From Candidatus Omnitrophota bacterium (lineage in GTDB: Bacteria; Omnitrophota; Gorgyraeia; Gygaellales; Profunditerraquicolaceae), in assembly GCA_003598025.1 (NCBI GenBank), contig QZKH01000002.1:138133-202132 (forward strand): a DNA stretch of 64,000 nucleotides. Reading direction: 5' to 3'. The notes beneath the pieces are model-generated. The model ran no database searches. It saw only the letters and a program-made list of their open reading frames with translations, and had not been told where the DNA came from. Positions 10,445-57,863 of the stretch are shown in pieces. The stretch's first letter is position 1; each line of letters opens with the position of its first letter. Both the position numbers and the translations under genes were made by a program.

Positions 10445-11557
10445 ATGATAAAAAATTCATTTTACGATATTTATGAAAAATACAAGGCTTTTGATTTTGA
10501 GGGGTTTTTTGTTAACGTAAGAGATGACAGAATAACAAAAATTATAAATAAAGATTCTTTAAGAGAAGAGGATTTCCTATGCCTGCTTTCTGATGCTGCA
10601 ACTGGATTTCTTGAGCAAATAGCGGTTAAGGCAAGGAATATAACAATAAAAAACTTCGGCAGGGTCATCTGTCTTTATGCGCCGTTATATTTAAGCAATT
10701 ATTGTGAAAATGAATGTTTGTATTGTGGATTCAGCAATCGCAATAAAATAAAAAGGAAGAGGCTAAGCAAGGATGAGCTGGGAACCGAAGCCAAAGCAAT
10801 CCGGGATACCGGCATACGGCACATTCTTGTTCTGACCGGTGAATCAAGGAAAATGAGCGCGCTTCCTTATATAAGCGAATGTATAGAGACCTTAAGAGAA
10901 TATTTTACTTCCATATCAATAGAAATATATCCGCTTGAATCTGCAGAGTATAAGGAGCTTATTAATACAGGAGCGGATGGTCTGGCTATTTACCAGGAGA
11001 CATATGATAGAACAAGGTACCAGGAGTTACATTCAGGCGGGCCAAAAAGCGATTATCTTTACCGTTTGGATGCCCCGGAGAGAGCTTGTATGGCCGGGAT
11101 AAGAAGCGTAAGCATAGGCGCATTGCTGGGCTTGTCAGAATTTAGAAAGGATATTTTTTTTACAGGCCTGCACGCGAGCTATCTACAGAGAAAATTCCCT
11201 AGTGTTGAATTTAGCGTTTCTTTGCCGAGACTACAACCGCAAATAGGCGGTTTCAAGCCTTTTGTCCAGGTTAGCGATAAAGATCTTGTCCAGGCAATGC
11301 TTGCTTTAAGGTTGTTTATACCCAGGCTGGGTATAAATATATCTACCCGTGAAAATTCTCAGTTCAGGAGTAATATAATCGGCCTTGGGGTTACGCGTAT
11401 GTCAGCAGGCTCAAAGACTGAAGTGGGGGGTTATTCTCAGAAACAGAAGACCGAGGGCCAATTTGAGATCCTTGATAAAAGCAGTGTTAGTGAAGTAAAG
11501 AATATGATCCGTGAAAGAGGTTACCAGCCGGTGATGAAGGATTGGCAGGTATTATGA
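10445..11557 (+). CDS. thiH: 2-iminoacetate synthase (radical SAM)
   Basis: Radical-SAM CxxxCxxC (CENECLYCGF). Lies between thiG and thiF. Confidence 0.8.
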   Translation: MIKNSFYDIYEKYKAFDFEGFFVNVRDDRITKIINKDSLREEDFLCLLSDAATGFLEQIAVKARNITIKNFGRVICLYAPLYLSNYCENECLYCGFSNRNKIKRKRLSKDELGTEAKAIRDTGIRHILVLTGESRKMSALPYISECIETLREYFTSISIEIYPLESAEYKELINTGADGLAIYQETYDRTRYQELHSGGPKSDYLYRLDAPERACMAGIRSVSIGALLGLSEFRKDIFFTGLHASYLQRKFPSVEFSVSLPRLQPQIGGFKPFVQVSDKDLVQAMLALRLFIPRLGINISTRENSQFRSNIIGLGVTRMSAGSKTEVGGYSQKQKTEGQFEILDKSSVSEVKNMIRERGYQPVMKDWQVL

Positions 11558-16859: not shown

Positions 16860-17505
16860 GGTAATAAAAGCCGGTTCCCGGCCAAGCCGGCTGGCAATAG
16901 AGCAGGTCAAAGAAATACAGTCATTATTGCCTGAGGTTAGGCTCAAACAGGTATCAATAGATACAACAGGAGACCTTGATAAAAATACTCCGTTGTTTTT
17001 AAGGGAGGGTTCGGATTTTTTTACAAGGGAGATAGAAAATGCATTAATAATAGGCAAGATTGATGCAGCAATACACAGCGCCAAGGACTTAGAAGTTAAT
17101 CCTCCGAAAGAGTTGGTTACTGCTGCGATAACAAAATCGATTAGTATATACGACTGCCTGGTTTCGCGCGGTAATTTGCCTTTGGATAAATTGCCAGGAG
17201 GCTCCATAGTGGGCACAAGCAGTTTTTCGCGTAAACAGGCTATCATCGGATATCGAAGCGACCTTAAGCCGAAGGATATACGTGGCAACATCGACGAAAG
17301 GTTGAAACAGCTGGAAGAAGGAAATTATGATGCTGTTATCATAGCCCATGCAGCGCTGCTTCGCCTGGGTTATCAGGATAAAATAGCGCAGGTTATTCCA
17401 ACTAATATCATTAAACCCAATCCTTTACAGGGGTGCCTGGCTATACAGGTCTTAAGAACAAGAAGGGATTTACTGGAACTATTCGGGAGGCTGCATGCAA
17501 ATTAG
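16852..17505 (+). CDS. hemC: Hydroxymethylbilane synthase (porphobilinogen deaminase), domains 1-2 only; C-terminal domain 3 absent
   Basis: KAGSRPSRLAIEQ matches the HemC N-terminal motif. The ORF ends at 217 aa, overlapping the cobA start, before the position of the cofactor-binding Cys domain. Confidence 0.75.
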   Translation: MLKVIKAGSRPSRLAIEQVKEIQSLLPEVRLKQVSIDTTGDLDKNTPLFLREGSDFFTREIENALIIGKIDAAIHSAKDLEVNPPKELVTAAITKSISIYDCLVSRGNLPLDKLPGGSIVGTSSFSRKQAIIGYRSDLKPKDIRGNIDERLKQLEEGNYDAVIIAHAALLRLGYQDKIAQVIPTNIIKPNPLQGCLAIQVLRTRRDLLELFGRLHAN

Positions 17506-18235
17506 AAAAGGAAAGGTTTATATTGTCGGAGCAGGCCCCGGGGACTGGAAACTTATCAGCGTAAAGGGGCTGGAGGCGATAAAGAATGCCGAGGTTATCG
17601 TGTATGATTTTTTAAGCTCAAAGGCATTATTAAGATTCGCAAGGAGCAAGACTGAGATAATCTGCGCCGGTAAATCCGACGGATTGCATATTATGGAACA
17701 GGGCAGTATTAATAGGCTTATTTATAACAAAGCCAGGCATGGCAGGATTGTCGTAAGGTTAAAAGGCGGCGATCCTTTTCTTTTCAGTCGCGGGATAGAA
17801 GAGGCCTTATATCTAAAGAGGAAAGGAATAGATTTTGAGATTATACCCGGGGTCACTTCGGCTTTTGCCGCACCTGAAAGTTTTGGGATACCGCTATCAA
17901 GGAAAGGAAAGTATTCTTCAGTCGCTGTTCTGGCAGGCAGGAAAAGCAATAAGGCAGATCTCGATGCGCCTTTATGCGATACGCTTGTGTATTTAATGGG
18001 GGTGGCAAATATAAAAAATATCGTAAAGGCAGTTTTAAAGTCCGGCAGGGACAAGCTTACACCGTGCGCCTTCATTGAAAAAGCCACAACGAATGACGAA
18101 AGGATAATCACCGGTAATTTATCAAATATAATTGACAAGGCTTATGAATATTCTGTGAAACCTCCGGCAGTGCTGGTGATAGGACAGGTTGTAAAATATG
18201 GCAAGAGACTTATACCCAAAAAATATCGAAACTAA
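17495..18235 (+). CDS. cobA: Uroporphyrinogen-III C-methyltransferase (SUMT)
   Basis: VYIVGAGPGD, GGDPF, VPGVTSA tetrapyrrole methylase motifs. Confidence 0.85.
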   Translation: MQIRKGKVYIVGAGPGDWKLISVKGLEAIKNAEVIVYDFLSSKALLRFARSKTEIICAGKSDGLHIMEQGSINRLIYNKARHGRIVVRLKGGDPFLFSRGIEEALYLKRKGIDFEIIPGVTSAFAAPESFGIPLSRKGKYSSVAVLAGRKSNKADLDAPLCDTLVYLMGVANIKNIVKAVLKSGRDKLTPCAFIEKATTNDERIITGNLSNIIDKAYEYSVKPPAVLVIGQVVKYGKRLIPKKYRN

Positions 18236-19232
18236 AGACCTGATTTATCCTTATTTTGTTATTGAAGGCAGATCAAGGAAGCAGGCTATTGATTTATTCC
18301 CGGGCGTATATAGATTTTCCGTAGATAAACTTTTAAGTGAGCTGGATAGTACGGTCAAGCTGGGGATAAATAAGATTCTTCTCTTTGGGATTCCAGATAA
18401 AAAAGATATTTATGGAAGCCAGGGATATAAAGAAGATAATATTGTCTCTACAGCTGTCCGGGCTATTAAGAAAAAATTCAGGAATATTACAATATTTACT
18501 GATGTTTGCTTATGTGCATATACAGAGAATGGACATTGCGGAATAACAAGGGCATCCCTCGACTCGGTTCGATTACGCTCACCACAAGCCGCTCGGGACT
18601 CCCTCGGCCTGAATAAAGTCGGAGGCCTTCGGTCGCAAGTCAGTATAGATAATAAAAAGACTTTGGAGGCATTAAGCAGGATCGCTTTAGCACATGCTAA
18701 GTCCGGTGCAGATTGGGTTGCCCCATCAGCTATGGCAAAGGAACAGGTTCTAAGTATCCGTAACGCACTGGATAGGTCCGGGTTTACAAAGGTAAAAGTC
18801 ATGGGATATTCTGCAAAATTCGCTTCAAATTTCTACGGACCTTTTCGTGAAGCTGCAAATTCTGCTCCTCGTTTTGGAGATAGGCGCAGTTATCAACTGG
18901 ATTATCTTGATTATGAAAAAGCAGCAGAAGAGATACAGGATGATATTAATGAAGGCGCAGATATGGTTATGGTCAAGCCTGCATTGAGCTATTTGGATAT
19001 TATCAGGCAAGCGAAAGATAATCTTAATTGCTTCTCGAAAAACAGGATATCGCTGGCTGCCTATAATGTAAGTGGAGAATATGCCATGGTTAAATATGCT
19101 TCCAGGCGCAATATATGCGATGAAAGAAAAATAGTTACTGAAATACTTTCTTCCATAAAGCGTGCAGGAGCAGATTATATTATTACGTATCATGCCAAGG
19201 ACGCAGCAAAATGGTTAAAAGAAAGTTATTAA
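18198..19232 (+). CDS. hemB: Porphobilinogen synthase (ALA dehydratase) carrying a ~30-aa GC-rich in-frame insertion
   Basis: CLCAYTENGHCGI zinc site and the active-site region ADWVAPSAMAKEQV. An extra TRASLDSVRLRSPQAARDSLGLNKVGGLRSQVS segment sits between HCGI and IDNKKTL. Confidence 0.85.
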   Translation: MARDLYPKNIETKDLIYPYFVIEGRSRKQAIDLFPGVYRFSVDKLLSELDSTVKLGINKILLFGIPDKKDIYGSQGYKEDNIVSTAVRAIKKKFRNITIFTDVCLCAYTENGHCGITRASLDSVRLRSPQAARDSLGLNKVGGLRSQVSIDNKKTLEALSRIALAHAKSGADWVAPSAMAKEQVLSIRNALDRSGFTKVKVMGYSAKFASNFYGPFREAANSAPRFGDRRSYQLDYLDYEKAAEEIQDDINEGADMVMVKPALSYLDIIRQAKDNLNCFSKNRISLAAYNVSGEYAMVKYASRRNICDERKIVTEILSSIKRAGADYIITYHAKDAAKWLKESY

Positions 19233-19237
19233 GAGAG

Positions 19238-20494
19238 ATGAGATATCTGGCTAAAGCTGGTGAGTTTCTTGCCGGAGGAGTTAACAGCCCCGTGCGCAGC
19301 TTTAATAAGATTGGGATAAAGCCGGTATATATAAAGCGTGGCGCCGGTTCAAAGGTATATGATTATAAGGGCAAGCGTTATATAGATTATTTACTTTATT
19401 GGGGCTCGATAATCCTGGGGCACAAGTATAAGCCGGTTATACGAGATGTAAAAAATTCGCTTAATAAAGGTTTTGGATTCGGTACCACAAATGACAGAGA
19501 AATAGAATTGGCAAGAATCATAAAGAAGGCAATTCCTTTCGCAGAAAAGCTGAGGTTCGTTAATTCCGGGACCGAAGCGGTAATGTCGGCGGTAAGGCTG
19601 GCAAGAGGTTTTACGAAGAGGGATATCGTCGTAAAATTCACAAATTCTTATCATGGGCATGCTGATTATTTGCTTGCTAAAGGCGGCTCAGGTTTGGCTA
19701 CTCTTAGATTACCTTTTAGCAATGGCATACCCGATAATTATTTAAAAGATACTATTGTCATCAAGGCAGGCGATGAGGATGCCTTGAACAATATATTCAG
19801 GAAACACGGCGTGAAGATCGCTGCGGTTTTGGTGGAACCCGTGGGTGGAAATTATGGGGTTATTCCACCTGATATTAATTTTTTACAAAAATTAAGGCGT
19901 ATAACCGATGCTTATAGGTCTGTCTTGATTTTTGATGAAGTTATCACCGGTTTTCGTTTTAGTTTTAGTTCTGTTGCGCAATCTTTTGGGATAAAGCCGG
20001 ATTTGATCTGCCTTGGCAAGATAATTGGCGGAGGCCTTCCTATTGGAGCGTATGCAGGCCCAGCTAAAATCATGGATAATCTTGCTCCGGAGGGTAAGGT
20101 TTATCAGGCTTCCACATTTTCCGGCAATCCTATAGTGATGCAGGCAGGCATTAGCTCCCTAAGCGCGCTGGCTAAACTAAAAAGACTATATCCGATGCTG
20201 GATACGATGGCCCGTTTTTTATCCAGCCATATTGAGGATATAGCCAGTATCGAGGGAGTTGACTTAAGAATCCCTTATTTTGGCGGTATGTTTAGTTTCA
20301 ACTTCAGAAATAGCAGTACATTCAGGGAGTTTTATAAGCTTATGCTTAAAAAGGGAGTGCTTTTTGCCCCTTCTGAATTTGAGGCCAATTTTATTTCATT
20401 TGCCCATTCCAAGAAAGATATCGAAGATACCATTTCTGCTTCCAGATGGGCGCTAAAAGAGTTAAGAAAAAGGAGAATGCGTAGATGGACATAG
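19238..20494 (+). CDS. hemL: Glutamate-1-semialdehyde 2,1-aminomutase
   Basis: GGVNSPVRSF N-terminus and the PLP-aminotransferase class III fold. Start moved to ATG 19238 (MRYLAKAGEF), after the hemB stop. Confidence 0.9.
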   Translation: MRYLAKAGEFLAGGVNSPVRSFNKIGIKPVYIKRGAGSKVYDYKGKRYIDYLLYWGSIILGHKYKPVIRDVKNSLNKGFGFGTTNDREIELARIIKKAIPFAEKLRFVNSGTEAVMSAVRLARGFTKRDIVVKFTNSYHGHADYLLAKGGSGLATLRLPFSNGIPDNYLKDTIVIKAGDEDALNNIFRKHGVKIAAVLVEPVGGNYGVIPPDINFLQKLRRITDAYRSVLIFDEVITGFRFSFSSVAQSFGIKPDLICLGKIIGGGLPIGAYAGPAKIMDNLAPEGKVYQASTFSGNPIVMQAGISSLSALAKLKRLYPMLDTMARFLSSHIEDIASIEGVDLRIPYFGGMFSFNFRNSSTFREFYKLMLKKGVLFAPSEFEANFISFAHSKKDIEDTISASRWALKELRKRRMRRWT

Positions 20495-33534: not shown

Positions 33535-34632
33535 ATGAAGAAAAGAGTAGTGGTAGCCATGAGCGGGGGGGTTGATTCTTCAGTTGCTGCTGCCCTTCTT
33601 TGCGGCAAAGGCTATGAAGTTATCGGCCTTACAATGTGTTTCAATTTATCTGAAGAGGGTAAGAGGCGCAGGATCCCATGCTGCGGTATTGAAGGCATAG
33701 AGGATGCAAGAAGGGTCGCACACAAGCTTAAGATCAGGCATTACGTTGTTAATATGCAAAAGTATTTGAAAAGATACGTTATTGATGATTTTATCCAGGA
33801 ATATTCTGCAGGCAGGACTCCTAATCCTTGCGTCAGGTGTAATCAATTCCTTAAATTTGATATATTGTTGAAGAAGGCACTTTCTTTGGATGCAGAATAT
33901 CTTGCTACCGGGCATTATGCGCGCATCGAAAAAGTCACCAGCCGTCAGCCGTCAGCCGTCAGCTTTAAGCTAAGAAAAGGCAAAGATAAGAATAAAGATC
34001 AGTCTTATTTTCTCTATCGATTGAATCAGGCGCAATTAAAACACATATTATTCCCTTTGGGGGGCTATACAAAACAGGAAGTAAGAAGCTTGGCTAGAGA
34101 TTTTGGTTTAGCTGTTGCTGATAAGGCAGGGAGCCAGGAGATATGCTTTTTACCGGATGATGATTACAGAGTTTTTATAAAGGGGAAAATTAAAGGCGAT
34201 GCCACAGGGGATATTATAGATGGCAAAGGTAACATATTGGGCAGACATAGGGGTATAGCCTATTATACTATAGGCCAAAGGCAGGGTTTAGGGATTGCTT
34301 TAGGTTACCCTGCATATATAATTGGCATCGAAGCCAAAACTAACAGGATAATAATCGGGCCAAAAGCCCAGGCTTTAAGCAAGTCTTTTATGGTGAAAGA
34401 ATGCCATTTTATAGCCGATTTCCCGGAAAAGAAGATTGCTGCAAAAGTCAAGATAAGGTATAATCACAAAGAGGCTCCTGCGGATATCTATCCTATGGGT
34501 GAAAAAATAAGAGTAGCTTTTAAAAAAGCGCAGTTTGCCGTTACTTGCGGGCAGTCGGCTGTTTTTTATGACAAGGATACTGTTTTAGGCGGCGGGATTA
34601 TAGATTGCATTCAGGAGAGAAAGGAAAAATGA
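33535..34632 (+). CDS. mnmA: tRNA-specific 2-thiouridylase
   Basis: PP-loop AMSGGVDSS and catalytic Cys residues; 365 aa. Confidence 0.9.
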   Translation: MKKRVVVAMSGGVDSSVAAALLCGKGYEVIGLTMCFNLSEEGKRRRIPCCGIEGIEDARRVAHKLKIRHYVVNMQKYLKRYVIDDFIQEYSAGRTPNPCVRCNQFLKFDILLKKALSLDAEYLATGHYARIEKVTSRQPSAVSFKLRKGKDKNKDQSYFLYRLNQAQLKHILFPLGGYTKQEVRSLARDFGLAVADKAGSQEICFLPDDDYRVFIKGKIKGDATGDIIDGKGNILGRHRGIAYYTIGQRQGLGIALGYPAYIIGIEAKTNRIIIGPKAQALSKSFMVKECHFIADFPEKKIAAKVKIRYNHKEAPADIYPMGEKIRVAFKKAQFAVTCGQSAVFYDKDTVLGGGIIDCIQERKEK

Positions 34633-47497: not shown

Positions 47498-47730
47498 AGA
47501 GGTAAGCCGATAAAGGCAAACTTCCGCTTTGTAAAAGCGGGCGCAGAGTTAGCGCTTGCGCATCGAAAGATAAGGACCTCGCACTTTGTGCGAGCTCGCC
47601 AGACTTAAGGTTATAGTTGGCGAGGCAAAGCCACAGACCTAAACCCGCTTTGGAGGAAATGGGTAGGGTAGCTGGGTTGCCGAAGGACGGTAGAGCCAGA
47701 GAGTACCTCTGGCCTTTATCGGCGGTTTTT
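47498..47730 (+). ncRNA. Structured leader RNA with GEMM (c-di-GMP-I riboswitch)-like conserved segments, possibly tandem or insertion-bearing
   Basis: Closing helix CCGATAAAGG (47507..47516) pairs with CCTTTATCGG (47713..47722). Internal GGCAAAC plus a GNRA (GUAA) hairpin. GCAAAGCCACAGACCUAAACC and GGGUAGGGUAGCUGGGUUGCCGAAGG closely match the Vc2 GEMM-I segments GCAAAGCCUCCGGCCUAAACC and GGUAGGUAGCGGGGUUACCGAUGG, recalled from memory. Confidence 0.5.
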
Positions 47731-55495: not shown

Positions 55496-55548
55496 AGTTC
55501 ATGGTTCATAGTTGATAGTTCATAGATCATAGACGATTATTCATAGAT
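55496..55548 (+). repeat. Direct GTTCATAG-type octamer repeat array immediately upstream of tRNA-Phe
   Basis: gttcatgg, gttcatag, ttgatag, gttcatag, atcatag ... ttcatag. Confidence 0.6.
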
Positions 55549-55549
55549 T

Positions 55550-55621
55550 GCCGAGGTAGCTCAGTGGTAGAGCGCAGCCCTGAAAAGGCTGGCGTGGGGA
55601 GTCCGATTCTCCCCCTCGGCA
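55550..55621 (+). tRNA. tRNA-Phe (anticodon GAA)
   Basis: Cloverleaf folded by hand: acceptor GCCGAGG/CCTCGGC, D arm GCTC-AGTGGTA-GAGC, anticodon stem CAGCC/GGCTG with loop CTGAAAA, T arm GGGAG-TCCGATT-CTCCC, discriminator A. CCA is not encoded. Confidence 0.85.
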
Positions 55622-55768
55622 CTTTTTTAAGATACAGGATTAATGTCTCCCCACGCCAAAAGGGGTGTGGGGAAAAAGTTTCCCCACGTTTGGGGGAGAA
55701 CAGTACGCCTGAGGCGGACGTTAGGAGGGGGCTTGCCCACTCCTAAGGAGTGAGTGTAAACGAACGAC

Positions 55769-55806
55769 GCGTGGGGGAGTCCGATTCTCCCCCTCGGCAC
55801 TTTTTT
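55769..55806 (+). other. Duplicated 3' half of tRNA-Phe (variable loop, T arm, acceptor 3' strand, T-tract)
   Basis: GCGTGGGGGAGTCCGATTCTCCCCCTCGGCACTTTTTT repeats tRNA-Phe 55592..55628 with one extra G. It lies 145 nt downstream of the intact tRNA, across a GC-rich hairpin-rich segment. Confidence 0.6.
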
Positions 55807-57538: not shown

Positions 57539-57548
57539 GGAATTTATT

Positions 57549-57670
57549 AGTTCATAGTTCATAGTTGATAGTTCATAGCTCACTGAACGTATTGCGTATA
57601 GCGTAGTGCGTATGGTGCCCTTGTGACTAGCTGCTCCCCATTCTATGAACCATGAACCATGAACCATGGA
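57549..57670. repeat. Composite repeat region: direct GTTCATAG octamers, three GCGTAK units, then inverted CATGAAC repeats
   Basis: agttcatagttcatagttgatagttcatag ... gcgtatagcgtagtgcgtatg ... ctatgaaccatgaaccatgaaccatggacc. Confidence 0.6.
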
Positions 57671-57685
57671 CCAATCGACCAATTA

Positions 57686-57774: not shown

Positions 57775-57863
57775 GCCGGCGTAGCTCAGCTCCGACGTGC
57801 TCTTTTCATTCGCAGTCGGAGTCCCGACCTCCGTAGCTTGTTTAATTTGATGGAGCGTCGGGA
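57775..57863 (+). other. Aberrant tRNA-like / GC-rich structured element (no acceptable cloverleaf found)
   Basis: Begins GCCGGCGTAGCTCAGC (tRNA 5'-like) and contains a T-arm-like CGGAG-TCCCGAC-CTCCG. No consistent D or anticodon arms. 3' CGTCGGG could pair 6/7 with the 5' end. Confidence 0.2.

Follow-up and report, generated by a model that had tools for sequence, protein, structure and literature searches.

The stretch of DNA analysed here, which we call the window, comprises 64,000 nucleotides of a Candidatus Omnitrophota bacterium (contig QZKH01000002.1, positions 138,133 to 202,132) and carries on its forward strand a hemB gene (18198..19232), a 344-amino-acid open reading frame (ORF) for porphobilinogen synthase (ALAD). 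A GC-rich insertion enlarges the loop that follows the metal-site cysteines of this enzyme. Our analysis indicates that the insertion is probably a pile-up of three hairpin-forming dispersed repeats, each 24 nt in length, in a surface loop of HemB. The gene belongs to a haem/sirohaem cluster, in which its neighbours are a TP_methylase-type gene (17495..18235) and hemL (19211..20494).

The hemB product matches the Pfam ALAD family with an E-value of 1.8e-119, in two stretches located on either side of the insert. The upstream anchor of the loop is GHCGI (18531..18545, + strand), with which the Cys-rich motif of the metal site (C104, C106 and C114) ends; residues G112, H113, C114 and G115 form invariant columns in an alignment of 20 HemB homologues (alignment A1). 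The downstream anchor is IDNKKTL (18645..18665, + strand), the start of a conserved helix. Spacing between GHCGI and IDN (18546-18644) is 33 residues in the window HemB as compared with about 7 residues usually found in Omnitrophota and about 5 in outgroups, which corresponds to an excess of about 26 residues or 78 nt. The initial annotation, made from the sequence alone, had placed a long GC-rich insertion between these two anchors, and both alignment A1 and the solved structure 5lzl, along which the HemB query runs from residue 121 to 146 while the chain runs from 142 to 143, locate it at the same position. The difference in composition is confirmed as well, with a GC content of 0.59 at 18550-18649 against 0.30-0.40 in the flanking parts of this AT-rich gene. 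The GC island at 18547-18641, one of the two longest in the window, peaks at 0.67 (window mean 0.413, standard deviation 0.076).

The reading frame is open across the whole insert. AlphaFold2 modelling based on A1 yields a confident barrel, with a mean predicted local distance difference test (pLDDT) score of 82.6 and a predicted template modelling score of 0.85, in which residues 122-128 and 130-146 have pLDDT values below 50. In this model the insert most simply appears as a disordered surface loop just past the metal-binding cysteines. The exact window HemB is on record from NCBI and JGI ('MAG: Candidatus Omnitrophota bacterium') on three contigs, the longest of which is 409 kb, and the next-best protein among 5.8 billion is 61% identical to it over the whole length. 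A second extra segment of this HemB, which is AT-rich, is present around 19020-19040 (residues ~274-281); it consists of six residues (NLNCFS) in AKDNLNCFSKNRIS and is absent from all 19 aligned homologues.

Of the 78 extra nucleotides in the loop, 72 can be assigned to three 24-nt units belonging to a single repeat family. The loop opens with a residual stretch, ACAAGGGCA (18546..18554, + strand; T R A), which by similarity would be related to the heptamers (AAGGTCAT and AGGTCAC) present on either side of the unit in the hemB loop at two other loci, L081 and L082. It is followed by the 5' half of an outer CC-type unit, TCCCTCGACT (18555..18564, + strand), whose loop is interrupted by an intact inner GG-type unit, CGGTTCGATTACGCTCACCACAAG (18565..18588, + strand; translated (S)VRLRSPQ(A)). 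The 3' half of the outer unit, CCGCTCGGGACTCC (18589..18602, + strand), then resumes and carries the C4-G17 compensatory variant that is also present in the hemB unit of L082. A probable third unit of the family, decayed and inverted (18603..18626, - strand; reverse complement GCCTCCGACTTTATTCAGGCCGAG), abuts the outer unit exactly. The loop closes with the residual stretch CTTCGGTCGCAAGTCAGT (18627..18644, + strand; ..LRSQVS), and xQV before IDN recurs in many Omnitrophota loops that are made up of AAGTCAC or similar heptamers.

The inner unit was located with R1, a covariance model of the 24-nt unit that was run on the window with filters off. It is the sole significant match of R1 in 64 kb (18565-18588, + strand; 36.3 bits, E=5e-8; runner-up E=0.34) and agrees with the family consensus at 22 of 23 positions. 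After removal of the inner unit, the rejoined outer unit reads TCCCTCGACTCCGCTCGGGACTCC, which retains 18 of 23 consensus positions and all three stem pairs. The nesting score of this arrangement is 15, and its class and junction are the same as those of 13 metagenome cases. The inverted unit retains 17 of 23 consensus positions and likewise three of three stem pairs. Among ~128,000 24-mers in the window, three score 17 or more, and 18603-18626 is the only one with a full stem. This segment is also identical at 26 of 32 positions to the reverse complement of a unit region in locus L014.

A BLASTN comparison of the insert with hemB loci from other genomes gives two borderline matches, one to L027 and one to an intergenic stretch in L014. 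The L027 match, GGTTCGACTGCGCTCACCACAAG, is translated VRLRSPQ as in the window. L027 carries an intact GG-type unit (positions 53-76, 41 bits) at the predicted N-terminus of a PstA-like permease ORF (MKGSKPVDKRKMVRLRSPQVEE...), a region that may be a 5' leader. When peptides from all six frames of the insert were compared with 5.8 billion proteins, no match was obtained at E<=10, but this comparison carries no information, as it did not return the window HemB itself (P0001) either. There is no period-7 signal in the insert; lag 25 alone stands out (z=3.65 among 42 lags).

The initial annotation had read the insertion as a small mobile or structured element that kept the reading frame. This is supported at the level of the individual units, which are dispersed 24-nt hairpins with compensatory changes in the stem and which, at 24 nt or 8 codons apiece, leave the frame undisturbed. 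However, no significant fold exists for the 96-nt insert as a whole, which folds no better than its shuffles on either strand (z = +1.57 and -0.33). The BLASTN search for further copies proposed there found none within the 64 kb (word size 7, besides R1 with filters off). A proposed link to a tRNA-like element and to tRNA-Phe through common 8-9-mers has dissolved to chance level. The window contains two occurrences of GGGACTCC (18595, + strand; 57818, - strand) against 0.71 expected, a count reached by 13 of 100 shuffles, and AGTCGGAGG is found only at 3295 and 18617 and thus is missing from the tRNA-like element.

The unit follows the pattern T-SS-TTCGRCTNCGCTCA-SS-ACARG, and its consensus is TSSTTCGRCTNCGCTCASSACARG. 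It is a small hairpin made up of T-SS-T, 12 nt, A-SS-A and a tail CARG. Its length of 24 nt is given both by clean insertions, which leave a junction ambiguity of 1-3 nt, and by the length of the model, and inspection of its sequence reveals that it is stop-free in five of the six frames. Viral contigs were searched with a degenerate pattern leaving the stem positions free, which resulted in 52 matching stretches. In 49 of 54 viral units the dinucleotide preceding TTCG can pair with the two S positions that follow CGCTCA, the pair types being CC/GG (27), GG/CC (13), GC/GC (8) and CG/CG (1). When 43 distinct units were aligned (A2), pairing was retained throughout at the two variable pairs, and the covariation score is reached by none of 500 shuffles. 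A further change, from T-A to C-G at pair 4-17, has occurred in the L082 unit and in the outer unit of the window. The combination of a conserved loop with a paired stem suggests that the unit may be recognised by a factor acting in trans.

The family is spread over more than 170 viral and metagenome contigs. GG-type units alone are represented in metagenome contigs by at least 120 stretches, on contigs with a GC content of 33-69%. R1 is also significant on finished plasmids of cultured organisms, namely Methylomonas sp. DH-1 (39 bits), Anabaena sp. 90, Hymenobacter volaticus and Nostoc sp. C052, and the family is therefore not an assembly artefact. On the H. volaticus plasmid (L257) two GC-type units are present in inverted orientation, at 19937-19956 (-) and 20004-20023 (+), in an intergenic region and 48 nt apart; several other Hymenobacter plasmids give the same BLAST match. 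Rfam contains no match to the unit, with no hit in the window insert at the gathering threshold and none at E<=1 on ten unit-bearing loci, and the unit strings and their peptides were not found in a literature search.

The units are found in particular sequence contexts. Among the metagenome matches listed, 20 of 124 units are located at the tip of a perfect inverted repeat of at least 6 bp, as compared with 1.1% in a control in which flanks were re-paired between loci, and many of these sites are REP-like hairpins with covarying stems. Thirteen of the same 124 units are nested in another unit with a score of at least 13 and with the junction seen in the window, as compared with 2.5% in the control. 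Units within heptamer arrays are present in the hemB loops of L081 and L082, in viral contigs (L106, L118, L122 and L127) and in metagenome contigs (L144, L158, L175, L226, L227 and L238), while the units of the window are flanked by heptamer-like remnants only. These positions suggest that the target of the unit may be DNA that is able to fold when single-stranded.

About one fifth of the metagenome units, again among the matches listed, lie in long open frames. Two of the insertions are clean and in frame and measure exactly 24 nt, one in an IS3 transposase (KKATAY[PSAALRTG]FARDAL) and the other in a propeller-type protein (SPD[GSAPLTTS]GSKIAY). In-frame units supported by Pfam matches are present in other essential genes and in further protein genes, including a MurD-like ligase (within Mur_ligase_M), alanyl-tRNA synthetase (within tRNA_SAD, two units), Fe/Mn superoxide dismutase, Met-tRNA formyltransferase (Fmt) and a metallo-beta-lactamase-fold protein. 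An FGE-family gene of Anabaena sp. 90 has an in-frame copy with a truncated tail, of which only model positions 1-20 match. Twelve of 13 genic GG-type copies share the reading frame encoding GS(T/A)xLTT, a bland peptide of Gly, Ser and Thr, and this bias fits selection on the translated product. A metagenome contig (L184, 844-920) contains three tandem GG-type units with a 27-nt period, encoding (RSGSTTLTT)x3; a leader and cleavage site resembling those of type IV pilins (G|FTLVEIM) come directly after them.

The hemB loop is variable across Omnitrophota. Many of the Omnitrophota HemBs in A1 contain inserts at the same position, which differ in length and are unrelated in sequence, and others contain none. 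Eighty hemB loci were fetched from reference genomes, and hemB is intact and in frame across the loop in all 80. In this set the distance from the metal-site Cys to AGADxVAPS is usually 28 residues (26-27 in outgroups), about 19 species have 6 to 20 residues more, and the window loop with its 26 additional residues is the longest. Within the best 120 HemB protein matches, the loop is longer by at least 6 residues in about 40 of 111, and the commonest inserted state is +7 residues because three heptamers make 21 nt or 7 codons. Most of the inserts are tandem heptamers, for example (AAGGGAC)x4 in L030, (AGTCCGG)x4 in L036 and (AGAAGAC)x4 in L061; other loops use AAGTCAC, AAGACAC, AAAACAG or AAAAGTC, and those of L054 and L010 contain inverted heptamer arrays. 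A scan of 1.29 Mb found 46 arrays of period 7 but only 5, 1, 0, 2 and 0 arrays of periods 8 to 12, and 11 of the 46 are located in the hemB loop. A second variable site of HemB is present after EYAMVK (A1 columns 349-361), where P0047, P0059, P0060 and P0112 have 6-13 extra residues; in L024 a heptamer-like array (10838-10862) lies inside hemB in this region.

The hemB loops of L081 (protein P0005) and L082 (protein P0100) have DNA in common with the window insert, and in each of them a 24-nt core is flanked by heptamers. On the 5' side the common DNA is AAGG[GT]CATCC[CT]TCG..CGCTC[AG]GGAC and on the 3' side GCAAGTCA. The unit is read in phase 1 in the inner unit of the window, in phase 0 in L081 and in the outer unit of the window, and in phase 2 in L082. 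Since it is read in three phases in three hemB genes, what is conserved is the DNA and not the peptide, and a conserved protein loop is ruled out. The lineage-specific conserved loop that the initial annotation had weighed against mobility is thus not seen, the nearest relatives of the carriers also being free of the unit. Identity among the three unit-bearing HemBs amounts to 61-63% outside the loop, and every one of them has closer relatives that lack the unit. P0005, for example, is 88% identical to P0007, whose loop (L256) consists of (CGAGAAC)x4 without any unit, the entire loop being different. The heptamers in the L081 loop (1543-1648) are AGGTCAC and AAGTCAT, unrelated to the CGAGAAC of L256. 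Unrelated heptamers in HemBs that are 88% identical imply that the arrays have been replaced wholesale and have not drifted by point mutation. These observations favour repeated gain into a tract that both tolerates and attracts inserts. A single ancient insertion common to the three carriers was considered and is unlikely, as they are not mutual nearest relatives and differ in frame and unit type.

These results may be brought together in one reading. The HemB loop in Omnitrophota is a fast-evolving tract of 7-nt tandem repeats into which units have probably been inserted, one of them lying in the loop of another and a third, decayed and inverted one directly adjoining these two. As units of 8 codons that are stop-free in five of the six frames, such insertions would never shift the frame, and the ribosome would read through them and produce an enzyme that is normal except for about 26 additional, disordered loop residues, probably without consequence for HemB. 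The units are most likely selfish, non-autonomous DNA, mobile in Omnitrophota, that is copied into single-stranded or hairpin-prone DNA, with palindrome tips, loops of earlier units and heptamer arrays as presumed targets. A preference for hairpin-prone DNA would explain why the hemB loop collects units.

Several points weigh against this reading. One intact unit in 64 kb and five significant ones in about 1.3 Mb of Omnitrophota DNA show that the family is not abundant in the lineage; judged from the 64 kb scanned, it is rare in this genome, where it may or may not be active. R1 detects four units in 1.25 Mb of hemB-centred loci, two of them in the hemB loop, which makes three of five when the window is included, but this count is biased upward as L081 and L082 were chosen for their long loops. 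The nearest database relative of the window HemB is only 67% identical outside the loop, and a recent gain in this gene is therefore conjectural. The inverted segment at 18603-18626 is decayed and is not reported by R1 at E<=10, for which reason we grade it as a probable unit only. Retention of the insert in mRNA and its translation are deduced from the open frame. No recurrent gene stands beside the units in 172 unit-bearing loci, and hence no candidate for a mobilising enzyme emerges; the neighbours belong to common families, such as ABC ATPases (9 loci), XerC-like recombinases (5 loci) and phage capsid and portal proteins. Finally, the search patterns fix most positions of the unit, so that the diversity of the family is under-sampled and its true diversity is wider.

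Alternative explanations have to be weighed against these data. An adaptive insertion, in which the loop tunes the activity or the oligomeric state of HemB or mRNA hairpins regulate translation of the hem cluster, could be imagined from the location of the site directly after the Zn-binding cysteines, from the fact that about a third of Omnitrophota HemBs have some insert there, and from the long inverted heptamer arrays of L054 and L010, which could form strong hairpins. We regard it as unlikely, however, as the inserts of different lineages have neither sequence nor length nor reading frame in common, disorder is predicted for the loop, the whole insert is no better folded than shuffled sequences, and the unit is also present in unrelated genes and in intergenic hairpins. 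Growth of the loop from within, by slippage or duplication in a lysine-rich, A-rich tract and its heptamers, would make any outside resemblance a matter of convergence or chance. It would account for the 7-nt tandem repeats of most Omnitrophota loops, which resemble slippage products, for the heptamer-like flanks of the window insert and for the lack of another copy in 64 kb. But the insert itself has no 7-nt periodicity. The unit to which its core corresponds at 22 of 23 positions (E=5e-8) is present in over 170 contigs unrelated to each other and in plasmids from four genera in culture, and 13 independent metagenome cases are nested with the same junctions. The family-level matches have already largely refuted local growth, which we consider quite improbable.

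Even less credence can be given to two further possibilities. An assembly or binning artefact, such as a chimeric join or a mis-assembled repeat, is a natural concern with a metagenome-assembled genome, and a look-up of contigs encoding this gene returned no record. But the frame is preserved over 96 nt, homologues align collinearly on both sides of the insert, NCBI and JGI both list the identical protein, on three contigs, and equivalent units are found in plasmids of cultured organisms with finished sequences as well as in the hemB loops of L081 and L082, which makes an artefact very improbable. The segment might also be absent from the protein, either through an intron-like excision of very small size or through bypassing of the kind known for yeast mitochondrial 'byp' elements, since a GC-rich hairpin element in an AT-rich gene recalls mitochondrial GC clusters and byps. 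Against this stand the unit length of exactly 24 nt, the absence of stops in five of six frames and the fact that all observed genic copies are in frame and open. The Gly/Ser/Thr-rich frame of 12 of the 13 genic GG-type copies moreover agrees with a peptide that is produced and under selection to be tolerated, and no known ribozyme or splice signal and no Rfam match were found for the insert. Excision or bypass is thus hardly to be expected here.

The pile-up of dispersed repeats, which we prefer, has some wider implications. An essential enzyme gene could gain tens of foreign GC-rich codons harmlessly because the units are multiples of a codon and free of stops, and the study of very small mobile repeats, so far little pursued, would be extended from cyanobacteria to Omnitrophota, other phyla and phage contigs. 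The units create odd low-complexity peptides (GSTSLTTG, VRLRSPQ, FGYAQDG and PSTSLRTG) and split domain matches, and they can mislead annotation and alignment. The many independent insertion sites at hairpin tips, in nested units, in heptamer arrays and in essential genes make both the target rule and the search for the enzyme directly testable. Tentatively, and with somewhat more doubt than belief, we propose that the 24-nt unit represents a class of ultra-small mobile DNA, pan-bacterial and also phage-borne, which has hairpin tips and heptamer arrays as its insertion sites, can live in essential genes by virtue of its stop-free, 8-codon design, and is moved by a trans-acting enzyme or by replication-linked copying. 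If this proposal is true, small dispersed repeats of cyanobacteria would be a local instance of something far more widespread, and with hundreds of retrievable insertion sites the mobilising factor should be findable by phylogenetic profiling.

Other repeats are present elsewhere in the window. The gene mnmA (33535..34632) contains an in-frame (CAGCCGT)x3.5 array at 33939-33963, which encodes SRQPSAVS in a hairpin turn about 5 residues longer than that of the solved homologue 9hln; it is the second conserved gene of the window with a heptamer-built loop. Heptamer arrays of the TAGTTCA type (55497-55540) are located directly upstream of tRNA-Phe. Upstream of tRNA-Thr, two inverted arrays (57548-57582 and 57643-57673) enclose a third array (GTATNGC), and a tRNA-like fragment then follows at 57776-57835. 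The 3' end of tRNA-Phe with its T-run (ggcgtggggagtccgattctccccctcggcactttttt, 55593-55628) is near-exactly repeated about 170 nt downstream at 55760-55805, and the two copies flank a GC-rich segment (55629-55759). This arrangement looks like the att-type direct repeat of a tRNA-integrated element, though the enclosed piece is tiny. A c-di-GMP-I riboswitch aptamer is also present at 47505-47684 (43.5 bits, above the Rfam gathering threshold).

Comparison with known elements sets the unit apart from most of them. Miniature inverted-repeat transposable elements were considered and rejected, since these measure 50-500 bp with terminal inverted repeats and a target-site duplication, as against 24 nt and a junction ambiguity of 1-3 nt. 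Inteins and group I or II introns were rejected likewise: the insert of 26-33 residues or 78-96 nt is far shorter than inteins (at least ~130 residues) or introns (hundreds of nucleotides with a conserved structure), and it lacks their defining features and has no Rfam match. GC clusters and byps of yeast mitochondria are short GC-rich hairpins in AT-rich genomes, sometimes located in protein genes, and byps are skipped by the ribosome. They belong to another domain of life and have other sequences, and the evidence from the unit points to read-through.

Rickettsia palindromic elements are selfish sequences that are found in frame in unrelated protein genes, where they are tolerated at surface positions (PMC10969869). 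The unit resembles them in its in-frame insertion into protein-coding genes. However, the Rickettsia elements are ~100-150 bp in length, palindromic throughout and found in Rickettsia, whereas the unit is 24 nt long and crosses phyla, and the 96-nt composite has no significant fold. Repetitive extragenic palindromic (REP) sequences and REPINs are short hairpin repeats thought to be moved in trans by RAYT transposases (PMC3116915). Several units occupy the tips of REP-like hairpins with a terminal CCCCTAC, which reads GTAGGGG on the opposite strand. In contrast to REPs, which are extragenic, have a GTAG/CTAC head and form doublets, the unit lacks a GTAG head and is often genic. It is an insert within REP-like hairpins and not the hairpin itself, and neither a RAYT association nor a recurrent transposase is seen beside the units in the 172 loci. 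With the short tandemly repeated repetitive sequences of cyanobacteria, which are heptanucleotide tandem repeats, the Omnitrophota hemB loop and several sites of the window have in common arrays of 7 nt, and units are embedded in such arrays. Here, however, the heptamers differ between lineages, the arrays are coding and occur in frame-keeping multiples, and the window insert is without period 7.

The closest known kind appears to be the small dispersed repeats (SDRs) of cyanobacteria. In 2008, Elhai and co-workers reportedly described such families (SDR1-8) in Nostoc punctiforme and relatives, 21-27 nt in length, with a common predicted hairpin and compensatory mutations. These SDRs are said to be often embedded in tandem heptameric repeats and sometimes nested in their own family, to differ in presence between close relatives and to move by a mechanism that was then unknown, and they were reportedly found in heterocyst-forming cyanobacteria. 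The unit is like them in its length of 24 nt, in its hairpin with compensatory changes among four pair types, in being embedded in tandem heptamers and nested in its own family, and in its presence in plasmids of Nostocales. As regards presence or absence between close relatives, P0005 has the unit and the 88% identical P0007 does not, but the whole loop differs between these two, and the databases contain no close relative of the window genome. A passage in PMC2884548 describes SDRs as ~20 bp long and possibly mobile, and according to one in PMC4390886, SDR5 inserts precisely into HIP1. In contrast to the SDRs, the unit is present in Omnitrophota, Bacteroidota, Gammaproteobacteria and viral and metagenome contigs of 33-69% GC, and instead of many dispersed copies per genome we find one significant match in 64 kb and four in 1.25 Mb of other Omnitrophota-rich loci. 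The likeness, which is drawn from the described features of SDRs and not from the SDR1-8 consensus sequences, nevertheless makes them the nearest known counterpart of the 24-nt unit in the hemB loop.

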